Assembly (NCBI GenBank): GCA_000091205.1
Contig: AP006498.2
DNA length: 64,000 nt
DNA from: Cyanidioschyzon merolae
Lineage: Eukaryota
Direction: 5' to 3' (one strand)
Under the pieces are notes generated by a model. That model worked only from the letters and a program-made list of their open reading frames with translations. It ran no database searches and was not told where the DNA came from. Below are positions 1 to 52,398 of the stretch, one piece after another. Positions within the stretch are counted from its first letter, which is position 1, and each line of letters begins with the position of its first letter. The translations under genes were made by a program, and so were the position numbers.

Positions 1-1135
1 GGTGTACCGGATGCAAACGACTCGTCTATTGATACGTCAGCGTCAAATTCGCGTTTGTCAGAAGAATAGATGCCTGCAACTGGATTGACGCACATAGAGC
101 GAGCATACACGCAGAGGAGTTCAAAGACAGTCTCAGCTATGTCTTCCGTGACCCCTTTTGAATGAAGCTCTATGGCAGTTTCCAAGACCAGGAGCGAAGA
201 ATGTGGTCAGGAGAAGCCATGAGGAATGATTCGATGACGGGCGAGACGATGGACGATCCCGTCTTGCTGGTGACTTCTCGACGGGCGTCCGACTGAATCA
301 CCGCTAGAGCTCCTGTTATCGTCATGCTCGCCTGGCTCTTCTTTAAGAACAGCGGATTGCCCCTCTTTTTGTGTACTCACGTACACGCCGACCATTTCTC
401 CCGAATCAAGTCTCATTTAGTGACATGAACACCCGTGATTCCTATAAAACAGTCCCGTTACAGAATGAAATCGATTAAGTGCTGTTTTCAGGCACAATGG
501 TCTCGCATGGAAGCACGCTTGTCTCGCGGGCGACCCGGTTCTTGTCATCAACTTTGGTATCGTCGGAACGGAAACGTCACATCCAATGGCTTCTTTCGTT
601 GTACTTGGAATAGAAGTATACCAGGGGATGGATTTGCGAGGAGTCTATCATGATGATATAGTGAGAGCGGTTCTGTTTTGGATGCACGGCATTCAGGATC
701 AGGGTGACCACAAGGCTGGTTCATCCGCCCGCTGACCGTAGAATGACTGACTTGAACAGTTAAAGCCGGTTTTCGCAAGCTACAACTGTCAGTGTAAAGT
801 TTGTCAGTGAGCGTTCTCCAACTTTACGGGTACATTCATGTTGTTGCATACCTGCGAGAACTGCAAGCGAAAACACAAAGCGCGTACGAGATCGGGTCCT
901 TCCAGCGTACTCTGTTCTGAGGTCTGCGCGACAACGCTTTTGGATTGCGCGTTCGTTAGCACAAAGTGGACAGTGTTTCACTGCGGAAAACAGCTCGAGG
1001 ATTGGCCATACGATTTTCGCAAAGAACGATAACGTGCCGCTTGCCAGCACCAGCGGAATTACTTGTACATAAAAGCTTTTACAAGGCGAAACCGCTCACC
1101 GCAAATCGGCACCAAACATATCCTCAGGTTCGGCA

Positions 1136-4100
1136 GTGTTTCCGCTGCAACGTGACGCCGCCGCAATATCCATCAATTTCTACCCGTTTCCTCATAATCA
1201 TTCAGAGTCACGGCACCAGCAGCAGCTGCTGACGTTTGTGAGAACTGTCTATCTCCGGCCCGGAACCGGTTCCCTGCGGTCAGCTATGTCGTCGCTAGCC
1301 GGCAGCAGACCGCAAGCTCGTCGCTCGGACACGACGCAACCACGACAGCCACTGCACGAGACACCGGTGCGTTCGACGGTGTTCCAGAGCCTACTCGAGT
1401 GCGTGCCAGAGAGCACTTGGTCCGTGGAACTCGCCCGTCTTTGTGATGAGCTTTCCACAGAAGAACCTTGTGACCTGACAGGGCCTTTGGACCAGACAGA
1501 AGCAGCGGTTTCACCGCGCACGCAGGCTGAGCACAGCGAGCCGCGCTCCGCAGACCTCCACAGCTTCACCAGCGAGACGCTGGAAAGCTTCCTCACCAAG
1601 CTCAATACAAGCGTCAAAGTATTAGAAGACGACTGGCTATGCCCTGCGACGGAGCTCGGGGACTCGCTTCAAGTAGCCGCTGAGGCATTCCAGCGCCTTC
1701 GAGCGAACACAGCGCGATGGTTCCTCGGAAGCGCCGTTCCGGACCAGGCGCTCGGGTCTGCTGTACGAAGGTTGCTCCGCCTGTATGCAATTGCAAAACA
1801 GGCGCACGGATACTTTGAGCACCTCGGTGTGCTCAGCGAGGAAGCAGATACGCTTGATCGGGCGCTTGCAGAAGGCAGCATCGACTTGCGAAGCGCATGG
1901 GAGATTTGGGAACGGCTCCACCGGGAGAAAGAACTGCTCGCCGAAGAATTGGCGATTGAATGTGAGTTTTCAACGGTATCGTGCTCAGCGCCAACGAATG
2001 AAACGGAAAGTGAGCGGGAGCAGCTCCAAACGGTGCTGACACAAAGGTGCGAGAAGCGAATCGCAGCGAGGATACAGCAGGCGTGCCGCTGGCGGCTGCG
2101 AGATCTGGTCCCCAGCCTAGAGCAGCATCCGGAAGATATTCACGTGATTGTCGCGATTTTCAAGGAGGAACCTCAATTGCTCGCTCACCTGTTTCCCGAC
2201 GTGATCCGAGAGGCCATCAGCCGGCGAGCTGATCATCACGAGCGATCCATCGTTGGTGCAGCGTCGGAAGCGGAGCACGCTGCGGAGACCGGCGCTCCTG
2301 AGCGTTCGCCAGGCGCGCACTGGCTGCGGGAGGTGCTCGCTGACCTGGATGCAAGGAACACCTCGGAGCAGAATGCGAGCCCAGAACGGAGCGCGCCTAG
2401 CCGCGCAGAAGAATATGGCACCGCCGCCGCTGCCGTCGCATCGAAAGCGCAAACATCAGAGTCGGCAAGCAGGTTGTCTCTCGAGTCGGTCTCGCGGGAA
2501 CCGGAAGAGCCGCAATTCGTTGCTCGAATGCTTCAGCGATGCGAGCTCCTCATTGAAGACATACGGATCGTGCAGAAGCATGTCGCAGCGTTGGGGGAAC
2601 CAGCATTTCCGCTGGATCGCTGGTACGCCCTGGAAACGAACCAAATCATGAACGCAGTCTTCTGGGGCATCATTACTCGCGCAAGTCTGATCCCGAGCAG
2701 AGATATCCTGGACCTGCTGGGGTGGATTCATCGCTATCGCGACTTTCTCCAACAAACCTTTCCCATGCTTGACCCCGAGGGCTCTGCGTCGCCAGCCGGG
2801 GCACTGGTCTGGGATCGCACCCACCAGGAGACACTAGTGCGCGGCCTGGACATGCCCGCTGAGCGACTTATCGAAGGCTATGCGGCACGTGCACTCGAAA
2901 TGATGCGTCGATGGATTCGTAACTGTATCAAGGTGGACACCGAGGGTCCAGTCGATGTTCGTGATGACGATGGATCGCTTTACACGCAAGGCCCGTTGGA
3001 TGTCTTCCGCATCGTGAACGACGAAATGACCATCGTGCAGGAGCGCCTCGAGCTGGGCAACCCACGCTTTGTTCAATGCATCAGCGATGCGTGCTGTGCG
3101 GCTCTGCTCGATTACCGCACCTGGTCTCTGGATGCACTTGAAGGCACGGAATCAGAAGACGGCGCACTCGAGAGATTTTGCGCAACGGTGAATAACCATC
3201 GACGCTGCGAGTCGCTGGCGGCGCAGTTTGCAACGCGGTGTCACACGATCCTAAACCAGGCGGTTTACGGCCTCGGCGACTGGGAACGGGAAACGAGCGC
3301 GACGCCCCAGACACCGACACAGGTGCCTGGTCCGTCGCCAGGTACCGCTTGTGCTCGCGAGTCAGAGGCACTGAACGAGACGACCTATGTGCTGGCAGTG
3401 GACAACCTCGCCGCTCAGTTTGCAGTCTCAGCCGAGTTTGCAGCAACGCGCGTCTGCAACGTCATTTTCGAGGATATGGACGATGCCCCTGGTTTATGGC
3501 CAAGACTGTACACACCAGCGTGGATCTCGGGCGAAGAAGAGATCGCCAATAGCATTGTGGCTACTGTAGACGACTTTTTCCACGACATCGACACGTACCT
3601 GCGCGTGGAGGTTGATCGTGCGCTGGTCGGGAGCGAATGCGCCACCCGCGTTGCCGATCGCTACGCAGCGGCGCTGGCAAGCTACCTGGGTGCCACGGGG
3701 GCTGCGCCCGAGGTCGGCGACGCCCAGCGTGCATCGCCAGAGGCGCTGGATCCAGCGGGCGCCACCCCGCCGCTCCTTGGTCCAAGATCGCGCGATCGCA
3801 TCGCGCAGCGCATCGCTGGTGGAAGCTCCAGCCGCCTGCTCCAGGTGCGTGCCGCCGGCTCCGAGGATGCGCGTCAGGGCAGGCGATTTCGTGACGCGCA
3901 CCCAGTCGCCAACCTCGATCGGCGCATGGTCGAGCGACTGCGCAAAGACTACGGGATCCTGGCGGCGCACTTTTTACACGCACGTCGTGGCGGCTCGCAC
4001 GCACGAGTGGTGCGTGCACTCGCTGCGATCGACGCGATCGCTGATATGCTGGCGGCTGCATTCGCGAACAACGCGGATGCGGTTAGCGTACATTTCAGTC

Positions 4101-4300
4101 ATCTGTTGGATGCGCGACTGAGTCGACACACCTTGTACTTATGGCAGCCGAGTACCGTAGAGCGCTTGCTGGTTGCAGTCGCCGAGGCAACGGAACGGAC
4201 GAATGCGCTGGATACCTGGAAGGAGGCAGTAGCAGCGTGCAGGCGCGCGTGGAGTGCCCGTGAGCAGCGTGACTGGGGCGAGCAGCCAGTGAGCTCGTGA
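1136..4300 (+). CDS. Large helical tethering-complex subunit, Sec6/EXOC3-like (CATCHR family). The start codon is uncertain and the N-terminus is low-complexity.
   Basis: Single 1054-aa ORF. It has an N-terminal coiled-coil-like region followed by long helical-bundle sequence with Sec6-like stretches (WYALETNQIMNAVFWGII...LLGWIHRYRDFLQ; DDDGSLYTQGPLDVFRIVNDEM). Ser/Ala-rich inserts are present. The family assignment comes from motif memory, not from a search. Confidence 0.45.
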   Translation: MFPLQRDAAAISINFYPFPHNHSESRHQQQLLTFVRTVYLRPGTGSLRSAMSSLAGSRPQARRSDTTQPRQPLHETPVRSTVFQSLLECVPESTWSVELARLCDELSTEEPCDLTGPLDQTEAAVSPRTQAEHSEPRSADLHSFTSETLESFLTKLNTSVKVLEDDWLCPATELGDSLQVAAEAFQRLRANTARWFLGSAVPDQALGSAVRRLLRLYAIAKQAHGYFEHLGVLSEEADTLDRALAEGSIDLRSAWEIWERLHREKELLAEELAIECEFSTVSCSAPTNETESEREQLQTVLTQRCEKRIAARIQQACRWRLRDLVPSLEQHPEDIHVIVAIFKEEPQLLAHLFPDVIREAISRRADHHERSIVGAASEAEHAAETGAPERSPGAHWLREVLADLDARNTSEQNASPERSAPSRAEEYGTAAAAVASKAQTSESASRLSLESVSREPEEPQFVARMLQRCELLIEDIRIVQKHVAALGEPAFPLDRWYALETNQIMNAVFWGIITRASLIPSRDILDLLGWIHRYRDFLQQTFPMLDPEGSASPAGALVWDRTHQETLVRGLDMPAERLIEGYAARALEMMRRWIRNCIKVDTEGPVDVRDDDGSLYTQGPLDVFRIVNDEMTIVQERLELGNPRFVQCISDACCAALLDYRTWSLDALEGTESEDGALERFCATVNNHRRCESLAAQFATRCHTILNQAVYGLGDWERETSATPQTPTQVPGPSPGTACARESEALNETTYVLAVDNLAAQFAVSAEFAATRVCNVIFEDMDDAPGLWPRLYTPAWISGEEEIANSIVATVDDFFHDIDTYLRVEVDRALVGSECATRVADRYAAALASYLGATGAAPEVGDAQRASPEALDPAGATPPLLGPRSRDRIAQRIAGGSSSRLLQVRAAGSEDARQGRRFRDAHPVANLDRRMVERLRKDYGILAAHFLHARRGGSHARVVRALAAIDAIADMLAAAFANNADAVSVHFSHLLDARLSRHTLYLWQPSTVERLLVAVAEATERTNALDTWKEAVAACRRAWSAREQRDWGEQPVSS

Positions 4301-5083
4301 TGAAGGCAGCATCGGTGATAGACTAGTATTGCAGGTGTCAGACGAGCTGCACGTTTGCGAAGACTCTGCAGGAGATTCGTTTCGAGGAATCGAGCAGTGC
4401 AGCGATTTGTTGCGCAGGCATCCGACCGCATTGGCCGGAAGGGCAACGCGTTCGACAGAAAGGCCCCGTTCCCTGGTTTGGGTGCGTGGTAGCTCGGCAA
4501 AACGGTCCCGGTTGGGGTATGCGCTCCAGCTTCCGCACGATCAAGGTGCCTATTTTTGTTGTTCTTGTTGGTGCTACTTTTGTTGCACGCGCTATCGGCA
4601 ACAACTGTGTCGTGTCGGGTGCTTCGTAGCGCATCGCTTTCTCGACAGCTGCTGCTCATGCATGCTATTGCTGTCGAGGAGAAGGGCACGTTTTGGACAC
4701 ACACGTGGCAGGCAGCGAATCGAAGCGCTTCGCGATCGTTCGTGAACCTGCTGCTCGGCGGATTCAGAGAGCGCGGCATTGTGGAGCTCTTGCGCGGCGG
4801 GCACACGCATTACACGCCCGAATCCACGCACAAATGTGACGCATTGGTGGTTACACCCGAGACGACAGGGAACCCATCGCGACGAGCGCCGCACGCTCGA
4901 CATGAAGACGTGAATTATCGCTTAAAAATACGCCCCCAACAACATGCGATCAAAGAACATGCACGTAGCCGCTGTGTCATTTCCGTGACACGAAACGATC
5001 GTTGAACACATCGAATAGAACTAGGTAAGCGATTCATACCCGAAAACAAGATGAACGCTAGAAAATGTCATGTAGCGTTGCGA

Positions 5084-6388
5084 TCACGGGGCAGAGAGCC
5101 GCATGGATTCAGTACCTTGATCATTCGCATCGTTTGCGTTCGGAAAGCGGCCTTGTTCGTCGTCGACAGCCTGCTCACAGTCCTCTGCTTCTGAAAGGCT
5201 CTCATGATCCAACTCATCTTGGATTGCTCTCTGTGCCGCTCTGGTAATCATCATAATCAACAAAATCATCGAACCTATACTTAATAAACGTAGGAGATTT
5301 TTGGGGCCGCGGTGCCTAGCCAGTGCAGCATCGGCTTCAGTGACAACGTCTGCACCGTTCTGTTTCGCGGGGTTCGTCGACCAACGCAGCTGCGCGCCGA
5401 TCGTCACAAGCAAAATGATGCCAGGCAGAATGCCGAGAATTGTACCTAGACAAAAAGAGCCAATCTGCACCTGCGACACGCCCATAGCCATGGAAGATAA
5501 GGCGAACGGAAACAGCGGGCTCAGCCGCATGAGGGTCACGAAGCGTAACGCCTGACGTGATAGCGCCCGATTGACCGCTAAATACGTGTTGCGCCGTTCC
5601 GAATTCTCAATCAGGCGCTCCATTCTTTCGCGGAGATAATAGCGAGACGTGTACAGACAGAGCAGCGCAGCGGCCAGATGGCAGCACAGAGCAACCGCAA
5701 TCCCGCAGACGAGGCCGAAGAGCATACCCGCGCCGATCGCCATGAGCCAGGCAGGAAACTCAAGGGCGGCTAGTATGATATACATGGAAGCGTAACTAAC
5801 AAGTCGCAGTGGCCATGGAAGACCTCGCATCCAAGATACAGCCGCAGAAAACGCAAACGCGACCTGTTTGTGTAGCACGAGCAGCACGACGCCGAGCGCA
5901 AGCACCGCAGTTACCGCAGTGACGAGAACCCAGAGATTCGCTCTTCGCTCGCCGACACAGACGCTTGGATTGGTGCGCATATCGAGCACATCAGTGCTCG
6001 CCGAACAGCCCACGGAGACGTCGGTGTGATCGGCGACGTGACCTGAGGGCTGCGTGCGCTGCCGCCCCCGTACAGGAGCACGACTCGTTCTTGCTCCGAG
6101 TACCGCTCCTCGTCCAGAATCTTTGGGTTTCAGCAAGTCGCCAGCGAGCGCAAAATCGCTCCGAGAGAGCGAACGACTGCGAACGAGAACGCCAGCGCTT
6201 TCCAAACCCGGCTGCCGACTCACTTCGGTACCAGTGAGCGCCGACTGCGCAGATGTGCTCCGCGACCGCCGGTGTAAGACCGGCTCCGTTTCGACACTGG
6301 GTTTCATAGAAACATACGAGACAGTACCGCTCCACCCAAACAACCGGCGAAGAGGCGTATCGGTGCACACGCGCACACAGACGCACAC
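5084..6388 (-). CDS. TVP38/TMEM64 (SNARE-associated, DedA-superfamily) membrane protein. The N-terminal third is low-complexity and the true start may be internal.
   Basis: Several predicted TM helices. The sequence MRLSPLFPFALSSMAMGVSQVQIGSFCLGTILGILPGII matches the SNARE_assoc/TVP38 signature R-x-x-P-x-x-P...G. Confidence 0.55.
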   Translation of the reverse strand: MCVCVRVCTDTPLRRLFGWSGTVSYVSMKPSVETEPVLHRRSRSTSAQSALTGTEVSRQPGLESAGVLVRSRSLSRSDFALAGDLLKPKDSGRGAVLGARTSRAPVRGRQRTQPSGHVADHTDVSVGCSASTDVLDMRTNPSVCVGERRANLWVLVTAVTAVLALGVVLLVLHKQVAFAFSAAVSWMRGLPWPLRLVSYASMYIILAALEFPAWLMAIGAGMLFGLVCGIAVALCCHLAAALLCLYTSRYYLRERMERLIENSERRNTYLAVNRALSRQALRFVTLMRLSPLFPFALSSMAMGVSQVQIGSFCLGTILGILPGIILLVTIGAQLRWSTNPAKQNGADVVTEADAALARHRGPKNLLRLLSIGSMILLIMMITRAAQRAIQDELDHESLSEAEDCEQAVDDEQGRFPNANDANDQGTESMRLSAP

Positions 6389-6810
6389 CCACGTTCACGG
6401 AAACGGTTCCCACCGAATGCGATGCAACCCCCGACGCTGATGCGTCAGCAGGTCTGCGCGCGTGCCCTACCCCGGTTTTATCTCAGGGCGGCGGAGCGCG
6501 TCGATCACCGGCTGCCTGGTGCGCGAAGCTGCGGTATCGCCGCAGTCGCCGCCTTCAGTGTCGTCGGTAGGCGCCAGATGAGCACTTCTTGGTACACAGG
6601 AACGGCGGTTTGCAGAGGAGGCCCCGCTGAATGATTTTTTTTGATGGACCGGACGTTGACATGCACCATGGATCCCAGATTGTGGGATGGATACCGGTGA
6701 TCGAAAGAGCGTTCATCATGCTGCACTCTATGTTCCAGTTCCATTGGTCGTACGTTTTCTCCGATATACTGGTCGTTTCGTACGTTCTACATTGCACCGT
6801 GTGCAAGCAG

Positions 6811-6850
6811 TTCGCGCCTGCACCAGCGCCTGCACCAGCGCCTGCACCGT
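6811..6850. repeat. Short tandem 12-mer (GCGCCTGCACCA) x ~3.
   Basis: The sequence cctgcaccagcgcctgcaccagcgcctgcacc is visible directly. Confidence 0.7.
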
Positions 6851-7136
6851 TGGTACGGACGCAGCACGCAGGTGGTGGGTAAGCGTTGCCGCACGCTGGT
6901 GGGCATCGGCTCCACATGCGATGCCCCTGATGCGCAGTCGATAGTCCTCGTCAGTTTGTGCGGCAAAATTTGGATTTCCTTTTCGGGATCAGAGTCGTTA
7001 CCATAACGCGTGATCATAAGATGCGAGATAAGTATCGGTATCCAACGCTGCACTCCAGAACGTTGACGGTGCTGTAGGGTCGCCTGAACGAGGCACGGGA
7101 TCCCCGATTTTCGACGGTGTTGATCGCCGTCGAGCG

Positions 7137-25448: not shown

Positions 25449-26949
25449 GCGTCTGCCGCCCGGAAGGCGCTAGGTCGGCACTGACGCCGCTCATGGACGG
25501 CGCCCGGCGGAGGCGCACGCGATCCGCGCATCGCTGCGCGTGCTCAGAGAGGGGCGGTTTTGCACCCGCCGCTACGCATCGCTGCGCGACGTCCAGCAGC
25601 GAGCGCCGCGATCTCGCAGGATCGCGGCGTGCGAGCGTTGGCGCCTCGTCTTCGGCGATGCGTTGGAGAAAACGTTTCAGGTGAGCGCGGATCCCAGGCA
25701 GCGGCACGGGTATTGACACGCTGGTACGCGTTCATCAAACTGCATCCGACCTCCGCGTTCGATGACTCATGAATTTTTCGGATGTACTGATCGTTTCATA
25801 TGATCTATCGTGCGCCGAGTGCCTGCCTTGAGCACTCGTCTTGGCGCCTAAACCGCTGGAGCAGATTCATCACGGATGCAGAGCGGGTTTGTCGTACCGC
25901 TGAAGGTGTCGACTCGAGGCGTGGTGCCTCTGACACCGGAATCAGGATTCATTACGATTCTAGGAGCCAGCGTGCTGCGCAGACAGACCTACTGCCTGCG
26001 ACAGCGCGAATCGATAGACTAGGATATAACTGGAACATAGGCTACACCCAGACGCAGCATGCTCGCTCCTGGTCATAGGATGAGCTGCGTTTCGGACGAG
26101 TTGTTCAGGTCTCGCTACAGCGGTCGCCAATCTCGAGAGCATAAAGCAGAAGCTTACCAGAGTCGGCCGGCTCGTTGGGCCTTCCTCCAAGAAGATAAAC
26201 TTTCGAAAATAGAGAAAACGTCTCCCCGTTTTACGGTTTAGCATATAGGGGAAAGCAATTGTCATCAAGTCGGTAGTTAACAGGTAGTTTCTGCTTTTTT
26301 TGTATCGCACGGTCGATGAGCGGAACTGCGTATTTAGAAGGCATGAGATACGACGCGCCTCTCGCTGCTGGAAGGAAACGCGATCTTGATACTTCGCTTG
26401 TTGCTCTGACGGACAAGCTGTATGTGCGCTGATGTCGTAGCAAAGTCTAGCTTTTCAGTTCCATTGTGTTTCGACCCCCAAGTCTGTGTACTCAAGTGCT
26501 TTTTCGCGGTTTACCGCAGAATCGTTCGAACAGCGTTCTTTTTCAAAAACATAAAAAAGGAAAGTTCTGGAAATCAAAGTGGAGGATCCTGGGGACGCAG
26601 TATCGCCGGCTGCCAGAAAAACCAAAAAACAGTGCCGAGCAAAGACGAACAAGATAAGACCATGAAGCAAAAAGGGGTGGGGTGGTCCGACGTCAGGATC
26701 TGCGCGAACGACGACACAACGACGAGATGTTCGTGAAAGCGTGTCTTCTTGGCCATATCAAGGATCCGTACAAGCAAAAGTTGCAAGAGTCCACAAGAAA
26801 CCGTGTCGAGTCGCAATCGATGAGTGTTATATAGGCGTCGTCAGGAGAAATGCATTTAGTGAAGGACATAAATCGCGATGTGACGGATATCAAAACAGTC
26901 TAGGCTCCGGAGGATTTTTCAGCGAAAGCTTTATTCGTCACCTGATGGT

Positions 26950-28943
26950 TTGCACAGGGAAACGTCGAGGAGAAATGAGCATGTGCACGCTCTCCACGAA
27001 AATTACGCCCAATGCCGCTTGAAGGGTGCTCGATACAAGGCTGACTCGCGTATTTACGAACACGGGACGATGAAGCACCTCACGAACCTGGAGAATCGCG
27101 TGATCGTGAAACTCGAACGCTCCATGATACGCTCCATCTTTGCGCTGTACCCGGGCCTGTCTCGCAAAGGGATACGGGCCATCGTCGGTGGCATCACGAT
27201 CGATAGTAGGCATGAGTGGGAGATCGAATTTGTCGAAAAGAAGACATCACGCAGAAGAAAGAATGAAGGTTCTGTAATCCGTGCGGCTATTCAAGAGCAT
27301 CATGCGGTCTTGGGGCTAGTCGACCCAGCAGAAAAGGTATCAGGATCGAAAGAAGATGAAGAAAGATGGGATCACCTCATGCTGCGCTATTTCGTGTTTT
27401 TCGGACCGAGAACTCGAACGCAAGGCCGAAAATGAGCAGGGTGTGGATGCAAATGAAGCGTCGGATACGCGGAAGGCTGAGCTTCTGGAGAAGCGCTTCA
27501 ACGTCGTTCTGTTATGCGAGATCAAGTCACATTTTGTGACAGTCGACTCCAGAGCCCTTGACGGCATCATGCAGGAGATCAGTTCGGGGTTAGGTGTCAG
27601 CACGAACGAGGTTACGGGCGAAAACCGGGAAACTCACTGAAGGAGTATCATCGATTCCAAACTTCTCAAAACGAGCAAGAAAAAGGAATTTACGGGGATG
27701 TTCGAAAGCGATGGGGTATCCATATGTCGACACTATCGGCGCTTGAAGGCAGACCGTCCAGTTCGGCCCTCGGCTTCGTCCTCGGCGAACCATGAAGAAA
27801 ACAAGGAGGCGGATCCTGCGACGCAGGAGGTGGAGGAGAACGACTTTATGGTTGGCGCGGCGAAGCATAAAGATGGGATGGAGGCGGGTCCTTCGCCGCA
27901 GGACATAGAGGATACCGACTTGTCGCTGGCGCAGACCCCGGAAACACAAAGATCATAACCATCGCTGTGTCCACGCGTGCGGAAGATGGTAACGAGGGTA
28001 ACTTATGTCGGAGAGACATGCGTCTGTGGAGGTTCTCGAGAGCAAGAGACTAAAGAGAATCCGGTATAATGAATGCGAGGAAGAACATCGAGATGTGGAA
28101 TGCAGGAATGAAAGAGCACCTGGAAGCTATGAGCCAGGTGACGAGCCGCGGAGCGGACTTGAAATCTTTTCTGAAATCCATGGAGGTTCGCGTTGCTCAT
28201 TGGGAGGCGCTGTGAAAAGAATATACAAAACCCCGGTGGGCTCGTCTGCGTATGAATCTATACAGTGGAAGCAGCGGGCATTCGCGAATTTTTTCAATGA
28301 GTTGAGCGCCTTGAAAGAGGATGAAAGTCAGAGGCTCGTAGTAGCATACGGAGCAGGACGATGGAAGACTCAAAAAGGGACTACGCCAGCTCCAACGACG
28401 AGAATGTATAACGGGTGTGCAAGGAGTTTCGCTACGATACCTGTAGATGGATTCCGAACGTCGTCTACACACCATGAACTGGGCTGTACACTTCAGAGGG
28501 CAGAGGTGGAAAAGTGCCAGCGGAGCCCTGAGGCTATAAAAAAGTACGGACCGCTGACGGAAGAGCAAATGGAAAGGAGGGCGAAACTTCGAGGGCTACT
28601 CGCATGGGTTAGTACAACCAACGGGGCCAAGAAACGCATGGAGTCCGTGAATCGAGCCTCTAATGCCGCCATCAATATCAGACGATGTTCGGTGCTGGAT
28701 ACAGGACCCGCGGGGCTGACGCGATCCAGTTTTGCGGGGCAATCTCTCCGGCTCGAAGTGAACAGGGAGAAACTGATGCCAATAGCAGTGGGCTGGTCGA
28801 AAACGACAGGTATGCGTCTGCGCCTAGTTATTCATGTGCCTTACACATTCGTGGTGTATTTTCGTTCCATTGACCATGTACGATGTAAGTTCGCAGCACG
28901 GTGCCTTGTTCGTGGTGTCGCATTCCTGCATGGATCCGAATGA
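26950..28943 (+). mobile_element. Candidate decayed or intron-containing TnpB/Fanzor-like element. A frame-broken ORF series (26950-27435 frame 1; 27356-27958 frame 2 with a single in-frame TGA at 27638) precedes the 28005-28943 ORF.
   Basis: The block is compositionally AT-shifted relative to its neighbours. Consecutive same-strand ORFs sit in three frames. The C-terminal ORF carries TnpB/Fanzor RuvC-II/ZnF/RuvC-III-like motifs (see the CDS entry). Confidence 0.4.
28005..28943 (+). CDS. TnpB/Fanzor-like protein fragment or derivative (RuvC-II / zinc-finger / RuvC-III region), copy 1. Catalytic residues appear substituted.
   Basis: LVVAYGAGRWKTQKGTTPAPTTRMYNGCARSFATIPVDGFRTSSTHHELGC ... NRASNAAINIRRC. 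This matches the eukaryotic TnpB/Fanzor pattern GxGxF/W...KG..P.P...v..VdEyrTSk.C..C ...RDvNAA.NI. The E becomes G, the D becomes A, and both CxxC pairs are absent. The N-terminus has an NLS-like KRLKRIR. It is paralogous to 40965-41657. Confidence 0.5.
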   Translation: MSERHASVEVLESKRLKRIRYNECEEEHRDVECRNERAPGSYEPGDEPRSGLEIFSEIHGGSRCSLGGAVKRIYKTPVGSSAYESIQWKQRAFANFFNELSALKEDESQRLVVAYGAGRWKTQKGTTPAPTTRMYNGCARSFATIPVDGFRTSSTHHELGCTLQRAEVEKCQRSPEAIKKYGPLTEEQMERRAKLRGLLAWVSTTNGAKKRMESVNRASNAAINIRRCSVLDTGPAGLTRSSFAGQSLRLEVNREKLMPIAVGWSKTTGMRLRLVIHVPYTFVVYFRSIDHVRCKFAARCLVRGVAFLHGSE

Positions 28944-40436: not shown

Positions 40437-40964
40437 AGGTACTTGAGGAATCGAAGATGCGTACGTAGGGCAGGCGAGGCTCAGTCCCAACGTTTTCCCA
40501 GAGCGTCTGAATCCCATAAAACGGATATCCAGTATCTCAACAACATCTGTGTCACTTTGGCGGGTGAAGAAGAAAGCTAGCAAGATGGAGAAGGAGAAGG
40601 AATTTTCAGAAAAGTGAACAACGAGGGACAGGAAGGAAGATTTGTTTGAGCGGGAAGAACAGCCTGGAACCGGTGTCAAGAACCCTCTACTGAATCAAAG
40701 ATATTGGGAGCATCCTCCGAAACGTGAGGTGCATGGCATCATTGCGAGCCGTTGAGCTGCTCACTCGAGGAAGGCTCGTCCGGCTTCCCGCGCCTCGGCA
40801 CACCTCGTCAACCAACTGTTCGCATGCGTTGCGGACGTAGGGCTGCCAGCTTTACACATTTCTCCGGAATTTTCTCATCAAGTTTTCGTGCGTCAAGTGA
40901 CGCTCGGGACAGAAGATGCAAAACGACCTGATTCTCCAGAGGTCGGTATCATCGAGTTCCGAGC

Positions 40965-41657
40965 ATGATGAACGCCACGAGGCACACCAACAAGTGGGAT
41001 GATGGCGTCAGGACTCATCTCGATGCACTGAAAACCGAATCGAGGAGAGCCGTACGCTCTGTACGCTTCATTCAGAGCGTAAATGAGCGACCAAATGCCG
41101 CATGCGTACGATGCTTGGCAGGAGTTCATGAGATCGTGCTGGGTGGCGATCGGTTGCGGTTGCTCGATGGCAAGGAACATGCATTCGTTGTCTTATTCAA
41201 TAAGCTGGAAAAGGAAGTCCCCGAAAATTTGCGTCGTTCAGTGACAGACTATAGCTCTGGACGTGCGGTGACGCTCAGGGGCTGCACTCTTGCTCCTTTG
41301 ACCAGAGTGTACCAAGAGTGGAGGAATCGATTCCGCAAGATTTCCATCGATGCGTTCAGGACGCCATACACGCACCACGAGCACTTGTGCATGCTGGAAG
41401 AGGAAGAGAAGAAGCGAACAGTGAAACAGAGCTGGATGCACGAGATTGCGAAGGGCACGCTGATCGAGCATCAGATGGCGATGCAGTTGAAGATGAGAGG
41501 CTTGCTATGGTGTGATTCGACCAGAGACCATGCGCACAAGCGCCTTCTCCCGCGATACTTGAACGCCTCGATCAGTATTCGGAAATGTCTCGTACTTTTG
41601 GAGCTTTCGGCGGATTGGTTTCGAGCGATTTTTTCGAGAAAACTGTTTCGTACTTAA
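40965..41657 (+). CDS. TnpB/Fanzor-like protein fragment or derivative, copy 2, a diverged paralogue of 28005-28943.
   Basis: Collinear with copy 1 over about 230 aa: AFVVLFNKLEKEV...SGRAVTLRGCTLAPLTRVYQEW...ISIDAFRTPYTHHEHLC...MRGLLWCDSTRDHAHKRLLPRYLNASISIRKC. The E-equivalent is A and the D-equivalent is Y. Confidence 0.45.
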   Translation: MMNATRHTNKWDDGVRTHLDALKTESRRAVRSVRFIQSVNERPNAACVRCLAGVHEIVLGGDRLRLLDGKEHAFVVLFNKLEKEVPENLRRSVTDYSSGRAVTLRGCTLAPLTRVYQEWRNRFRKISIDAFRTPYTHHEHLCMLEEEEKKRTVKQSWMHEIAKGTLIEHQMAMQLKMRGLLWCDSTRDHAHKRLLPRYLNASISIRKCLVLLELSADWFRAIFSRKLFRT

Positions 41658-41875: not shown

Positions 41876-42844
41876 TCAGAGGAGACACGGGACCAGCGCT
41901 GGACGTTTCTGAACAAATTCCACGAGCGGATAACGTCGCCTGAGGCATTCCTTGCTGAGCACCGCTGTATGGCCCAGATTGGTGGCCACGAAAAGCATCA
42001 CCATGCCAGGCAGGGCGGCGCATAGCCCCACGCACCCCGAAACGACCAGATAGCCGATCAGAATGCCATAGATCAGTATTTCAGCGAGATAATGGGGGCA
42101 CGTACTCCAGCGAAATAACCCCCGCGTCACAATCGCGTACTTCGGAGAACACGACACAGCGTCGTGTACAGCGTAGTGAGAGCGTGGGCGCTTGTGCGCC
42201 TTGCGAACTCGAGCAAGCTCGTAGTGTGCCCAGAATTGCGCAAAGTTGGCGGCACTGAAACAGATGAGAAGCAACGTGAGCGGTATTGTGCTTTGCTTCC
42301 GCATGTGCAGCGCCGGCAGCAGATCTAGATCACTCAGGCACTGGCCATGATGATGACAGCAGCTCCGACCCCACACCCAGAGTATCGGCAGAGATACGTA
42401 AAAAGATAGCCCGGCGGCAGTAAGGACGAGCGGAAGTTTTTGTTCGGTGAAGCTATGGATAAAATAGCTCTCACCGAGACGTCGCAGGGTGTGCACTTGG
42501 AACAGGGTCGCTACCCAACCATACGCAGTTGCGCAGCTACAGCTGACCTGTTCTCTTCGCGCACTATATCGACAGAGGTTCGCAAGTCGTGTGTGGTAGA
42601 GCAAAGCGCCGTTCCAGATGAAGGCTACCAAGTAAAATGCGCGGAAAGTCTGCGCACGAGAAAGCGTGCCCCAACGCCTTTGCGTTTTCCGTTGGTCCAG
42701 GGTATCGTCTTCGCTGTGCCGTAGGCCGCCATACCGGGTCCACGCGTCAAGTCGCGTACTCCAGATTTTGCCAACTGTCAGCGACAGCGCACACGCCCAA
42801 TACACAAGAAGACTGACACCTACAGCGCTGCAGATCATACGCAA
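41876..42844 (-). CDS. Polyprenol reductase / 3-oxo-5-alpha-steroid 4-dehydrogenase family (SRD5A3/DFG10-like).
   Basis: The C-terminal VTRGLFRWSTCPHYLAEILIYGILIG matches the Steroid_dh signature (G.y..vs.PnY.gE...w.G). Multi-TM. Confidence 0.7.
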   Translation of the reverse strand: MRMICSAVGVSLLVYWACALSLTVGKIWSTRLDAWTRYGGLRHSEDDTLDQRKTQRRWGTLSRAQTFRAFYLVAFIWNGALLYHTRLANLCRYSARREQVSCSCATAYGWVATLFQVHTLRRLGESYFIHSFTEQKLPLVLTAAGLSFYVSLPILWVWGRSCCHHHGQCLSDLDLLPALHMRKQSTIPLTLLLICFSAANFAQFWAHYELARVRKAHKRPRSHYAVHDAVSCSPKYAIVTRGLFRWSTCPHYLAEILIYGILIGYLVVSGCVGLCAALPGMVMLFVATNLGHTAVLSKECLRRRYPLVEFVQKRPALVPCLL

Positions 42845-47948: not shown

Positions 47949-49924
47949 TGCGATAAGCTCGTTGAACAGAAGAGACTTGTTTCTTGAAACGAATTGCGTA
48001 TGCGTCACGCACTTTGCGTGATCGTTGCAGCGTAAATTTTTAGCGTCAGACTTGTAACGTACGCTTCCGTTGGCAGCGTCAACCGGAACGTCGAATTCCA
48101 ACGAGAACGACTCCGTTCGATAACCAGCGCACTTTCGTCTTGAATGAGGTTACCTGTCCTTCACGAAATGAAGACGAAGCTGTTCAGTACGCCAGTCGCG
48201 CTGGACGTCCTCGAACTGACTGCGTTTTGCTGCGGTCTGTGAACACCAGATGCACGCGTCACCCACAAACACACACGAAGAGTGATGTTCAGGTCAAGCG
48301 CCGCTGGTACAGTGATCGATGCGCGGACGCCGTCATGCCCCGCCGTGTCGCCGTTTTTCGGGTGATCCGCGGATGGCGTCGCTGGAGGGTATGTCCGTCT
48401 ATATATGTCGCATTTGTTTTGTTTCATCGAACGTAGACACAGCGGAGACCAGCGATCCCCGATTGCGGGATGCGCTCCGGCATTCGGGAAAGCATCCATC
48501 ATGCTTCACACTACGTTCAAGTTCCTCTACCGATACGTTCCCCTCGAGGGTACTGGTTATTGCTCAAGTTCTATCGTGCGCCGAGTGTGTGCCTCGGGCG
48601 CCCGCGTTCGCGTCCATAGCGCCAGTGCGGATACAAGGTGACGACAGAAAAGCTTTTCCGTACGGGGATCGGATGATGGCATCGCATGCCATGGCAGAGC
48701 ATCGCTCGGGTCGCTGATGGGCATTCTCAATGCTGGAGATCCATTATGGTGGAGCTAGAACTTTGGCAGGTCCGTCGTTCAATTCCAATCTGGAGGCTGG
48801 TAAAGCGCTCACTGGGTCTAGGGAGAGCGCGATGAAGCATATGCGTCGGAGGCTAGCGAAGTGGATGGAATCCCCGTGTAAGACGAGTCTCTCCCTAGCG
48901 TGCGAGCAATGCGGTCAAGCGCGTCGCCATATGCCTCTGGAATCCACTTGCCGCAGAGCGTGGGACGTGAATCTGGCGTGGATTTCGTGAAAATCACCGG
49001 AAAACCGGATGCAATGATGTATCTAGAGTTTTGCCCTGATCTGCACCACCTGCATGACGCGTACAGGTGCGCACCGATCTCAGCGTTCACATGCGAGGCG
49101 GGCTACGTGCTGCGCATCCTGCAAACAGGGCAGAGGTGCAGCGAGAAGTCGCTGCTTGTGGTCTTTTGTCGCTGATGGGATAACGCATGTGCAACATGCT
49201 TGCTTGACGCGTCGCTTTCCGTGCAGCACGCAAATCGAACGAGCTCTACTTGGCATCGCATTCACGTACATACGTGGTCCGTACCGAGCGGTGGAAACGT
49301 GGAATGTCTCTGTTTCATGATGCTGCTCAATACAGCGATGCGCTGCCTCGGATCCTTGAGAAGCACCTGGGCACTCGACGCACTTGCGGCATCGCCATAT
49401 CACCTCCAGACAAGTATGTGATGTTCTGGAAGCATGTTTTCGGGTTGTGACGGGCGCAAAGTCATGGTCATGGGACGCAACAGGCACATCTTTTCCGCAA
49501 TTTGCGTGATATCATTGAAGAAGAAATCATAAGGAAAACGAGTCTGTTGGGCGCTGACGAGGCGTGGTGCTCGCGGCCCCAGCGACAGTGGCTTGGGACT
49601 CGTTTAGGGTAGTCTTGCATCCAAGCCAGTCACTTGTTTTCGCAAGTTTCAGATATATCATGAAATGTCGAGAAACTTGCTCCAGCACTGCGTGAAGCGT
49701 CGCACACCGGCCGCACGAAAAGCATCCGCTCTGGACGTTAGCCCTGCGGGCTATGCCCGTGTCTGATAAAAATTAGAAGCTGAAACGCTCGCCCTCCCCT
49801 GTCTTGCCATTTTTTCGAACTTTATTTTAGATCTTCACACTCGACATTCCAAGACCAGTAATTCGAGCTTACCGTGCTCGTACGTAATTTTAAGTGTTCT
49901 CGGTCGTGGTTTCCAAGTGGCCCC

Positions 49925-50100: not shown

Positions 50101-52398
50101 TGCTTCTTTTCCAGGGTAACTCGTGTGCGCAGAAATTCGCGTCGCTGGATTGAAATGCGAAAAAGTACTCGAGGTCGAGCCTTATCATCTTGTTCACAGG
50201 CTGATGCCGAGCGTTTAATGAATTTGCCACGTCAAGTAATCGATTCCGATCGAAAGACGGATGGTCCTCTCCTGGTGGCTGCCAACGAAAGAGAATTCCA
50301 CCATAGAAGCACGATGCTTCTTACAGAACATGCCCCTATAGGCGCCCGTCTCTTCTGTTTATATGGATAAGGGTCTTGGGCTCGTAGATAAGTCCCGGCA
50401 GCGATCGCTTTGAGTGGAGCGTGCGTCACCGCTTTGAATGAAAGGAGTGTATACCGGGCGGAATTTCTCGACTTGTTCTGTAGCCTGGATTTTTCGTTCG
50501 ATGCTTATTTCATGAAAGACAGCATCGTGCACCAAAAATCCCGTGTCAAATGGAACAACATGTGTTTGTGTATGCAGCGGACAGCGTACTCGCCCAGTGA
50601 ATAGCCTAGAAAAAAATCCGTGATCCTAAGCGACGGCGTCGGGCGAGGAAACAGAAGAGTGCATCGAAAGGAGCCTTCTGCACCCTTCGAGGGCATGCAC
50701 TGAGTGATGAAACATGTATCCCCATGGCATAATATGCGCCCGCGGAAGAAAGCGTTTGGTTATAGACGTGGCGGAGCAGCCGAACACAGCCCGGTGTCAC
50801 CGCTCCGAAGCGCGCACCGATGCAGCATACAAAGAAGATGAAAAGGGTAAACTATACGTGGATCGCAACTTCCGCCTGTACATCAAATGCAGCGGCAACA
50901 GCCGAAAGCAATAAAATCGGTGCTTCAACGTAGCTATCAACATTTCTTCGACCGCTGACCACGGTGTTGAAACAGAAAAAGCGTTCAGCATATTCAAAGC
51001 CCGAGACCAGAGACGGGAAACCGGAGCAGTCCCAAAAAAGCATGCAAAGGCTGGTGTTGATGTCTGTTGGAAGAGACCAAAACTTGAACGTGTTCGAGCG
51101 TGTCAGTGTACCTATTGCATTTTCTTCGAACATGAGCGTAGCGCACACCCTGTGGCGCATGCGCCATACCCAGATCCGCTCCGAGTAGACGGACGTCGAG
51201 GCGCTGCACAGTCACTCTGGCTTCAGAAGCAGCGGCAGTGGAGGAGCTTTTACCACCACAGCGAGAACCTGCGATAGGCTCGGCACCCGAAAGACCACCA
51301 AACTGATTGAACCTCTATTTTTAGATGAGAATCCGTTCTTAAATGGATACAGCATCACGGTATTCCAAGCAGAGCTGTTGAATGGTGCCTGGCGATCGTC
51401 AGCAGTCGCGTACTCGGTAGCATCCGCTTCGATGCATCCGTCCTTCTCCATCAAAAACAGCGCGGATGGAGCCGGCCGGACTACGGAGAATGGATCGAAC
51501 TAGTATCTGTTCTTGCGAGTGAAAACTAATATCCACGCGTAGACACCTCGCAGGCTTTTTCGACCTGCCCCCAGGTATCGGTTTCGGCGTCTCCCTGAAC
51601 ACTTCATGCAGCAGAGGCCGGCCCACAAAGTCAGATCACGTCAGCTCCGCAGGTCTCGTCTTCAGCGCTAGACGTCGTCTGATATTGATGACGGTGTACA
51701 AGTCTCGGTTCACGAAGTCCATGCATGCATTGCCGCTGGTTGACCGCCTCAGTGTAAGGATTCCTCAAACTCTTGCCCTCTGCGCCTCTGCAGTCTCGTC
51801 ATCGTTCCGTCGGCCAAAAACGTTTCCTCGCTTGTCTTCCTTCTTTTTCTTCGACATTTGCTCTTCTTCGCTCGATGGTAAAGGACAAGAGGATTTTTTC
51901 GTTTCTTTTCGGGTACCCGGCAACACCGAGCCTCAAGGATCCGCGATTTTGCATGTCCATACCTTTCCCTTGGTCTTTTCATTTCTTCAAAATGAACGCA
52001 CTTCCAACGCTTCTGCTATAGACCGCAAAAAAAAGCACTTGAATCCACGCACCTGGGGAATGCAACACAGTTGAGCTGAAATACTAGAGAAATCGCAGCG
52101 TTGCGCCACCAGCGGATCCCGTACTCACTGAACGGAGGCCTATCTAGTCAGCAACTCGTCGATTGTCCAGGCTTCTGGACTGAGGTAATAAACGCTTCGA
52201 AGGTAGACGCGCTGAACGCTCCTCAGGTTCCGGAAACAGAGCCGGCGTTCTGGCGAGACACTGGGACTCACTGAGCCCACTTGCGCTCAGGGAAGCCGCC
52301 TCGTGAACAGACGTTCCATAGGGGACAACCTGGTGCGCACAAGGACGCACCTGGTGTCGCGTCTGGTTGTCGACGTTTTCGCGTAAGGAACTGAGGTC

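Follow-up and report, generated by a model that had tools for sequence, protein, structure and literature searches.

The window analysed here, a 64,000-nucleotide stretch of DNA, lies on chromosome 16 of Cyanidioschyzon merolae 10D, its flanking proteins matching the entries of that strain exactly. Window positions 25661 to ~28880 (+) are almost certainly one old, inactivated insertion of the transposable element CMe-1A; the ancestral element encoded a single-exon Fanzor1 protein of 734 aa (CMe-1). The family is already known: it was catalogued in the C. merolae genome in 2013 by Bao and Jurka (Mob DNA 4:12; PMC3627910), in the paper that defined Fanzor, and the window copy is a pseudogene. 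CMe-1A is the sole Fanzor1 family listed there for C. merolae, with a consensus of 3169 bp, about 150 genomic copies that are each ~80% identical to the consensus, no terminal inverted repeats (TIRs) and target-site duplications that were not determinable. The CMe-1 protein is given as 734 aa from one exon (Additional file 1 of the same paper), and the first 635 bp at the 5ˊ end of CMe-1A are identical to a separate element, TE-N2_CMe. The consensus DNA and the protein used here were taken from the supplements of that paper. An earlier note, made from the letters of the sequence, had offered two readings of this locus, a decaying Fanzor transposon and a nuclease-dead, possibly domesticated derivative, either of which it considered notable for this genome. 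The former is the correct one of the two, as judged by the consensus match, the lesions, the hidden Markov model (HMM) scores and the fold search described below; the claim that it is notable fails, given the published family of ~150 copies.

Consensus positions 5-3093 are collinear with window positions 25666-28829 at 79.9% identity, gaps included (81-83% per BLAST segment), a value that matches the divergence published for typical CMe-1A copies. The element starts at ~25661, which is 1.3 kb 5ˊ of the start given in the earlier note, and extends to ~28880 as a near full-length copy of ~3.2 kb. Consensus alignment divides it, all on the plus strand, into a 5ˊ module equivalent to TE-N2_CMe (25661-26297; consensus 1-635, aligned from consensus 5 to 636), a core 5ˊ untranslated leader (26298-26566; consensus 636-905), the remnant of the 734-codon CMe-1 coding sequence (CDS; 26567-28829, from codon-aware alignment, tblastn and direct translation) and a variant 3ˊ tail (28830-28880). 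This tail, the probable right end of the copy, is common to the independent locus L021/L038 up to ...CATTGAC, and stands in place of the last ~76 bp of CMe-1A, which hold the ancestral stop and the terminal hairpin; consensus 3094-3169 was not found in the window. A 3ˊ truncation of the copy at consensus ~3093 is ruled out by the shared tail, which continues to ~28880, and the missing consensus terminus is read as reflecting a subfamily variant or a rearrangement; the copy still counts as a member of the CMe-1A family. No inverted repeat pairs the two termini of the window copy. The AT-rich, frame-broken mobile block that had been described at this locus is real: the GC fraction is 0.48-0.53 over 26-29 kb versus 0.57-0.59 in the flanks. 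The consensus itself has a GC content of 52.3%, the window copy 51.5% and the remaining window 56.0%, so the AT shift arises because the CMe-1A element has that composition.

The window copy shares with the CMe-1A consensus its species, family, collinearity, a TE-N2_CMe-like 5ˊ 635 bp, the lack of TIRs and a single-exon layout of the open reading frame (ORF). It differs by the lesions that follow, by one more acidic repeat unit and by the variant 3ˊ tail. The start codon at 26567 has changed from ATG to CTG. Codon-aware alignment reveals 11 indels in the CDS, and the homologous frame changes in the order 3>1>2>1>3 along the remnant, with tblastn segments at 26685-26936 (frame 3), 26959-27402 (frame 1), 27395-27934 (frame 2), 27919-28269 (frame 1) and 28269-28826 (frame 3). 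The ancestral frame is interrupted by five stops, at codons 88, 111, 357 (27638-27640), 470 (28051-28053) and 524 (28213-28215). A frame-corrected reconstruction retains 521 of 735 residues identical to CMe-1 (71%). Among the indels is a 74-bp insertion (27846-27919, from the indel table of the codon-aware alignment), which is one more acidic ~25-aa repeat unit less one base and thereby shifts the frame; it translates as ...NHEENKEADPATQEVEENDFMV|GAAKHKDGMEAGPSPQDIEDTDL and matches a repeat unit that is variable in number among the homologs. The acidic repeat went undetected by Tandem Repeats Finder (TRF).

In the consensus the RuvC triad is D431/E603/D672; in the window copy it reads D431 (in another frame)/G603/A672. 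The true RuvC-I motif GADPGNTKIITIA (27928-27966), which in the profile alignments pairs with the DPGr motif of PpFz1 and SpuFz1, keeps its catalytic Asp431 (GAC at 27934-27936, within GADPGNTK) in frame 1, outside the long ORF discussed next. The RuvC-II motif is IPVDGFRTS (28437-28463) instead of the family consensus IPVDEFRTS, with Glu603 replaced by Gly (28449-28451, GAG>GGA), and the RuvC-III motif is VNRASNAAINI (28647-28679) instead of VNRDFNAAINI, with Asp672 replaced by Ala (28656-28658, GAC>GCC). Both substitutions (E603G and D672A) are private to the window locus and to its orthologue L001, from a metagenomic strain. The TnpB/Fanzor-like protein with a replaced catalytic Glu and Asp that had been recognized by eye is thus confirmed as a Fanzor1 by profile, HMM and consensus alignment.

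The longest ORF within the element, ORF312 (312 aa, 28005-28943, +), carries the stretches LVVAYGAGRW..KGTTPAPTTRMY, PVDGFRTSSTHHELGC and NRASNAAINI. It is present as the earlier note stated, together with three same-strand ORFs upstream of it (26950-27435, 27356-27640 and 27698-27958), the latter two lying in one frame and separated by the TGA at 27638-27640. ORF312 is pieced together from three stretches. Residues 1-88 (28005-28268) do not follow the frame of the ancestral protein, residues 89-274 (28269-28826) correspond to the ancestral sequence from RuvC-II to the C-terminus, and the final ~39 residues (28827-28943) come from a shifted frame or from read-through past the ancestral stop. 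A Fanzor1 HMM match within it covers only residues 90-246. The RuvC-I motif lies upstream of the ORF312 start, in a frame that overlaps ORF312 and meets the stops at 28051 and 28213 downstream. Judged from these alignments, ORF312 is a chance survivor, in which an out-of-frame N-terminus and a read-through tail enclose an ancestral RuvC-II/III segment. The nuclear localization signal-like KRLKRIR that had been pointed out near its N-terminus sits within the first 88 codons and is an out-of-frame artefact. Likewise, FVTVDSRALDG, once put forward as a possible RuvC-I, aligns to CMe-1 residues ~321-331, which form the conserved 'hFitiDt' block of the profile alignments to PpFz1 and SpuFz1, ~100 residues before GADPGNTK.

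Profile searches and a predicted fold establish the CMe-1 family as Fanzor1, with the window copy as a dead derivative. As single sequences, the ORFs gave nothing relevant against Pfam, NCBIfam or the PDB sequences, and a shallow profile of 17 close relatives had no match in the PDB; a diverse 42-member alignment (A3) was needed. The A3 profile matched PpFz1 (9CF0, 3e-20), SpuFz1 (8GKH, 1.2e-12) and GtFz1 (9CER, 1e-8) and no other PDB chains, in alignments that run through the DPG, DEFRTS and NRD-NAA motifs. A Fanzor1 HMM of 647 positions, built independently without any CMe-type sequence, gave the CMe-1 consensus protein a score of 633 bits and the frame-corrected window copy one of 447 bits. 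Within 26658-28940, eight stop-to-stop segments match this HMM collinearly over positions 14-606, the ORF312 segment on its own reaching 117 bits. On these alignments the Fanzor resemblance of the window locus is far beyond chance. Pfam and NCBIfam returned no above-threshold match for the window ORFs, the close family or the distant relatives, and sub-threshold PF07282 matches (13-19 bits versus a cut-off of 26.3) were found at the expected C-terminal position in 5 of 10 distant relatives. Of the profile searches that the earlier note had proposed, those with OrfB_IS605 and PF07282 therefore gave no above-threshold match, while the one with a Fanzor1 profile succeeded.

The fold comparison was made on the intact relative P0028, not on the broken window copy. 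The AlphaFold2 (AF2) model of this protein has a mean predicted local distance difference test (pLDDT) score of 75.5, with 85-95 in the core, and its top seven Foldseek matches are SpuFz, PpFz and GtFz (E 4e-11 to 7.5e-7), followed by Cas12 variants and then by ISDra2 TnpB (8H1J) at 1.8e-3, in line with the structural kinship proposed from the motifs. The ancestral CMe-1 shares with SpuFz1 (8GKH), PpFz1 (9CF0) and GtFz1 (9CER) the WED/REC/RuvC/NUC fold and the RuvC D...E...D triad (DPG, DEFRTS and NRD-NAA), at only 13-18% sequence identity. Homology of the CMe-1 clade to prokaryotic TnpB (ISDra2, 8H1J) and to the OrfB_IS605 (PF01385) and Cas12f1-like_TNB (PF07282) families is distant and concerns the RuvC core; the CMe-1 clade proteins are eukaryotic, roughly double the length and unaccompanied by a TnpA.

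The zinc-finger cysteines listed as missing in the earlier note are indeed absent, although this absence is no sign of decay in the window copy. Bao and Jurka described the Fanzor1 motif as D-X-[TS][TS]-X-X-[C4 ZnF]-X-RD (PMC3627910), and a CCCC zinc finger is common to SpuFz1 and TnpB (PMC10432273, Extended Data Fig. 10 legend). The CMe-1 consensus and 42 diverse clade members have 0-3 Cys and no CxxC pairs between RuvC-II and RuvC-III, and all of these sequences still keep DEFRT and NRD. Across the sequences compared, the lack of zinc-finger cysteines is a clade-wide, ancestral trait. An exhaustive profile search collected 1,568 cluster representatives (E<=1e-3), with lengths of 600-700 aa in many cases. 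CMe-1 is part of a large Fanzor1 clade that keeps the D/E/D triad without the canonical CCCC zinc finger; green algal members come from Tetrabaena socialis (PNH08370.1) and Haematococcus lacustris (KAJ9522957.1). The zinc-finger-less region is still confidently folded in the AF2 model. A precomputed Pfam tag, PF26935.1, is attached to eight relatives (P0040, P0045, P0047, P0048, P0054, P0075, P0078 and P0080) and was not reproduced by the Pfam run on the close relatives. Our literature search on Fanzor in Cyanidiophyceae and on Fanzor1 without a zinc finger yielded nothing useful.

The window copy diverges from the consensus by 13.8, 13.5 and 21.1% at codon positions 1, 2 and 3, respectively, and by 21.3% in non-coding sequence; this divergence mixes changes that were selected while the master lineage evolved with the neutral decay that followed. 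Evolution between strains was assessed by comparing the window with the orthologous locus L001. The two differ by 1.95% in the CDS remnant, 0.75% in ORF312, 1.12% in intergenic sequence and 0.2% in the CDS of the neighboring gene CMP061C. Within ORF312 there are three synonymous and four non-synonymous changes, distributed 2/2/3 over the codon positions. By these counts the window locus evolves neutrally between strains, and the 99% identity of the orthologous protein P0001 to ORF312 is due to recent common ancestry, not to constraint.

Further copies, which the earlier note had suggested looking for, are plentiful, whereas the TIRs sought along with them are lacking. A scan of metagenome contigs gave 355 confirmed relatives, of which 80 (L002-L081) were kept for copy statistics. 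The longest ORF reaches at least 650 aa in only 3 of these 80 environmental copies and is mostly 100-500 aa, and substitutions in the catalytic motifs are sporadic and varied (VDKF, VGEF, VDDF, VHEF, VYEF and NRAF). The window copy is therefore typical, since few copies keep long ORFs and the catalytic substitutions are assorted. The copies agree with the consensus at 87.5, 90.1 and 81.0% of sites in codon positions 1, 2 and 3 versus 78-83% in non-coding sequence, from which it follows that the CMe-1 protein was under selection while the family spread, in agreement with the argument of Bao and Jurka (PMC3627910). Long ORFs are kept in a few environmental copies (L009, 722 aa; L006, 747 aa; L050, 654 aa), among which L009 (match at ~1774-5659) preserves the complete triad in GADPGNTN, IPVDEFRTS and FVNRDFNAA. 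Activity of the CMe-1 family may therefore persist in certain populations of Cyanidioschyzon from hot springs.

One alternative is that the host has retained ORF312 as a domesticated Fanzor fragment (RuvC-II/III and NUC) devoid of catalysis, which might for instance bind RNA or DNA as a regulator or repress the active copies of CMe-1. We consider it very improbable. It could draw on the facts that ORF312 is the longest ORF in the element, that the two replaced residues are precisely the catalytic ones, that the frame is open in the second strain with 99% amino-acid identity and that its homologous part shows a slight deficit of substitutions. However, the first 88 and the last ~39 residues are non-ancestral, the RuvC-I, WED and REC parts lie in other frames and are broken by stops, and the start codon is lost along with the 11 indels and five stops. 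Strains that differ by just 0.75% in DNA, with three synonymous and four non-synonymous changes, make the protein identity uninformative. In other decayed copies the catalytic sites have been hit by different random substitutions, the truncated architecture is seen in no homolog but the orthologous locus, and ORF312 is absent from all annotated proteomes in our collection, that of C. merolae included. A more specific version starts from the frame being open in two or more Cyanidioschyzon strains and supposes that ORF312 is expressed, restraining the few intact CMe-1 copies by trans-dominant inhibition or as an omega-RNA sponge. It would make ORF312 a transposon-derived repressor; we give this idea equally little credence. 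That the three upstream ORFs and ORF312 might be exons of one intact spliced Fanzor gene, as the earlier note had entertained for the N-terminal part, agrees with pieces that lie on one strand, collinear and in Fanzor1 order. The published CMe-1 is nevertheless single-exon and the intact relatives P0047 and P0028 are continuous across the same junctions; the frame changes fall at indels of 1-2 bp when the copy is set against the consensus, and nothing intervenes, the stops at 27638, 28051 and 28213 lie inside conserved blocks, and the start is CTG. The upstream ORFs are accordingly frameshifted remnants, and splicing is extremely unlikely. The idea that ORF312 belongs to a conserved host family unrelated to TnpB/Fanzor, its motifs being coincidental, could appeal to the lack of Pfam, NCBIfam and PDB matches for the single sequence and of a PDB match for the shallow family profile. 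It is refuted by the deep profile and the fold search, which specifically reach solved Fanzor1 structures; the more than 350 copies scattered over metagenomic Cyanidioschyzon contigs, most of them broken, form the pattern of a transposable element, and the published CMe-1A consensus matches the locus. The chance of such an origin is practically nil, and neither outcome named in the earlier note as fatal to its reading (no TnpB/Fanzor profile match, or an unrelated host family) came about.

Some observations do weigh against the interpretation of the locus as an inert Fanzor1 relic. SpuFz1, PpFz1 and GtFz1 have a CCCC zinc finger and the CMe-1 clade does not. The homologous part of ORF312 shows two differences in 561 bp between strains, where the intergenic rate would give ~6 (Poisson p ~0.05), a weak, non-significant hint at constraint. 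A transcript or a peptide from ORF312 is possible. Furthermore, RNA-guided cleavage, a target-adjacent motif (TAM) and an omega-RNA are attributed to CMe-1 by transfer from SpuFz1, GtFz1 and PpFz1 (PMC10432273 and PMC11423790).

By homology with the assayed Fanzor1 proteins, we propose that the ancestral CMe-1 would have been an omega-RNA-guided RuvC endonuclease of the TnpB/Cas12 lineage. Its guide would be a non-coding RNA transcribed from the right end of the element, and cutting of DNA beside a short TAM would have allowed the element to be retained or to spread. The window copy is inert: the start, two of the three catalytic carboxylates and the usual right-end module are lost, and the frame is broken about ten times. 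As one of ~150 decayed copies, the window locus matters little in itself and is better masked, as repeat or pseudogene sequence, than pursued as a domesticated nuclease. Of modest value is the context of its family, a clade in red and green algae that has lost the zinc finger and was under purifying selection during its spread. Any search for thermo-acid-tolerant RNA-guided nuclease activity would have to turn to the few near-intact copies of hot-spring Cyanidioschyzon, and not to the window locus.

The omega-RNA of SpuFz1 follows the ORF on its downstream side and spans the right end of the element, with 14-15 nt of flanking sequence serving as guide (PMC10432273). Most CMe-1 copies reach consensus 3137-3169, and per-sequence folding places a hairpin of at least 6 bp adjoining the 3ˊ terminus in 24 of 51 distinct copies. 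The hairpin occurs in two registers that are five substitutions apart, CGUUUUUC-UUUU-GAAAGGCG and CGUUCGA-CUU-UCGAACG; the flank opens with TT in ~35 and with TTTG in 18 of the 51 copies. As a lead, the terminal hairpin is a candidate for an omega-RNA 3ˊ stem or terminator, or for a transposition signal. RNAalifold found no common structure in the family 3ˊ termini beyond an invariant 3-bp stem with zero covariation, and thus did not confirm, as a single consensus structure, the compensatory changes that the hairpins had suggested by eye. Rfam had no match in 25.0-29.6 kb at a permissive E-value. That no omega-RNA had been seen at the window locus is explained by the window copy being without the usual 3ˊ terminus. 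SpuFz1 elements carry 30-nt inverted repeats (PMC10432273); CMe-1A has none.

Among the 80 copies and the window copy, the Fanzor core, from consensus ~650 onward, is joined to interchangeable 5ˊ modules. A TE-N2_CMe-like module is found in direct orientation in 19 copies, including that of the window, and inverted in four (L046, L047, L056 and L066), and an unrelated module with the palindrome GGACACGTGTCC, a motif not present in the window, is found in ~15. Across L002-L081 the junction between core and module falls at CMe-1A consensus ~646-690. By this comparison CMe-1A may be a composite, or else the junction may be a recurrent site of insertion or recombination. Over 8 kb the window and L001 agree at ~99%; the exception is the TE-N2-like module (25780-26380 versus L001 109-~710), where they differ by ~27%. 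This reflects either module exchange in one strain or a chimeric metagenomic contig, the contig ending inside the repeat.

Other genes and relics lie to the right of the element and elsewhere in the window. CMP061C (BAM81718.1, 30019-31029) and XPD (BAM81721.1, 37409-39757) are exact matches to C. merolae 10D, and a steroid-reductase-like gene occupies 41876-42844 (-). Between XPD and this last gene, at 40630-41654 (+), is a second and far more divergent Fanzor1-like relic, with ~35% amino-acid identity to CMe-1 or to any other relative found; its sole close match is the orthologous P0214 (99%). The relic is internally deleted, matching HMM positions 59-113 and then 393-592, and reads IDAFRTP at RuvC-II and PRYLNAS at RuvC-III. 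It may be a remnant of an older lineage outside the listing of Bao and Jurka, which has one Fanzor1 family for C. merolae. A CMe-1A fragment at 51535-52086 (-), also internally deleted, retains consensus 788-969 and 2809-3088 at 66-77% identity, and loses similarity at consensus ~3088, as the main copy does. Two solo fragments, at 6653-6940 (+) and 48447-48663 (+), match only the first 230-280 bp of CMe-1A, within the TE-N2_CMe module, at 68-75% identity, and are probably copies of the non-autonomous TE-N2_CMe.

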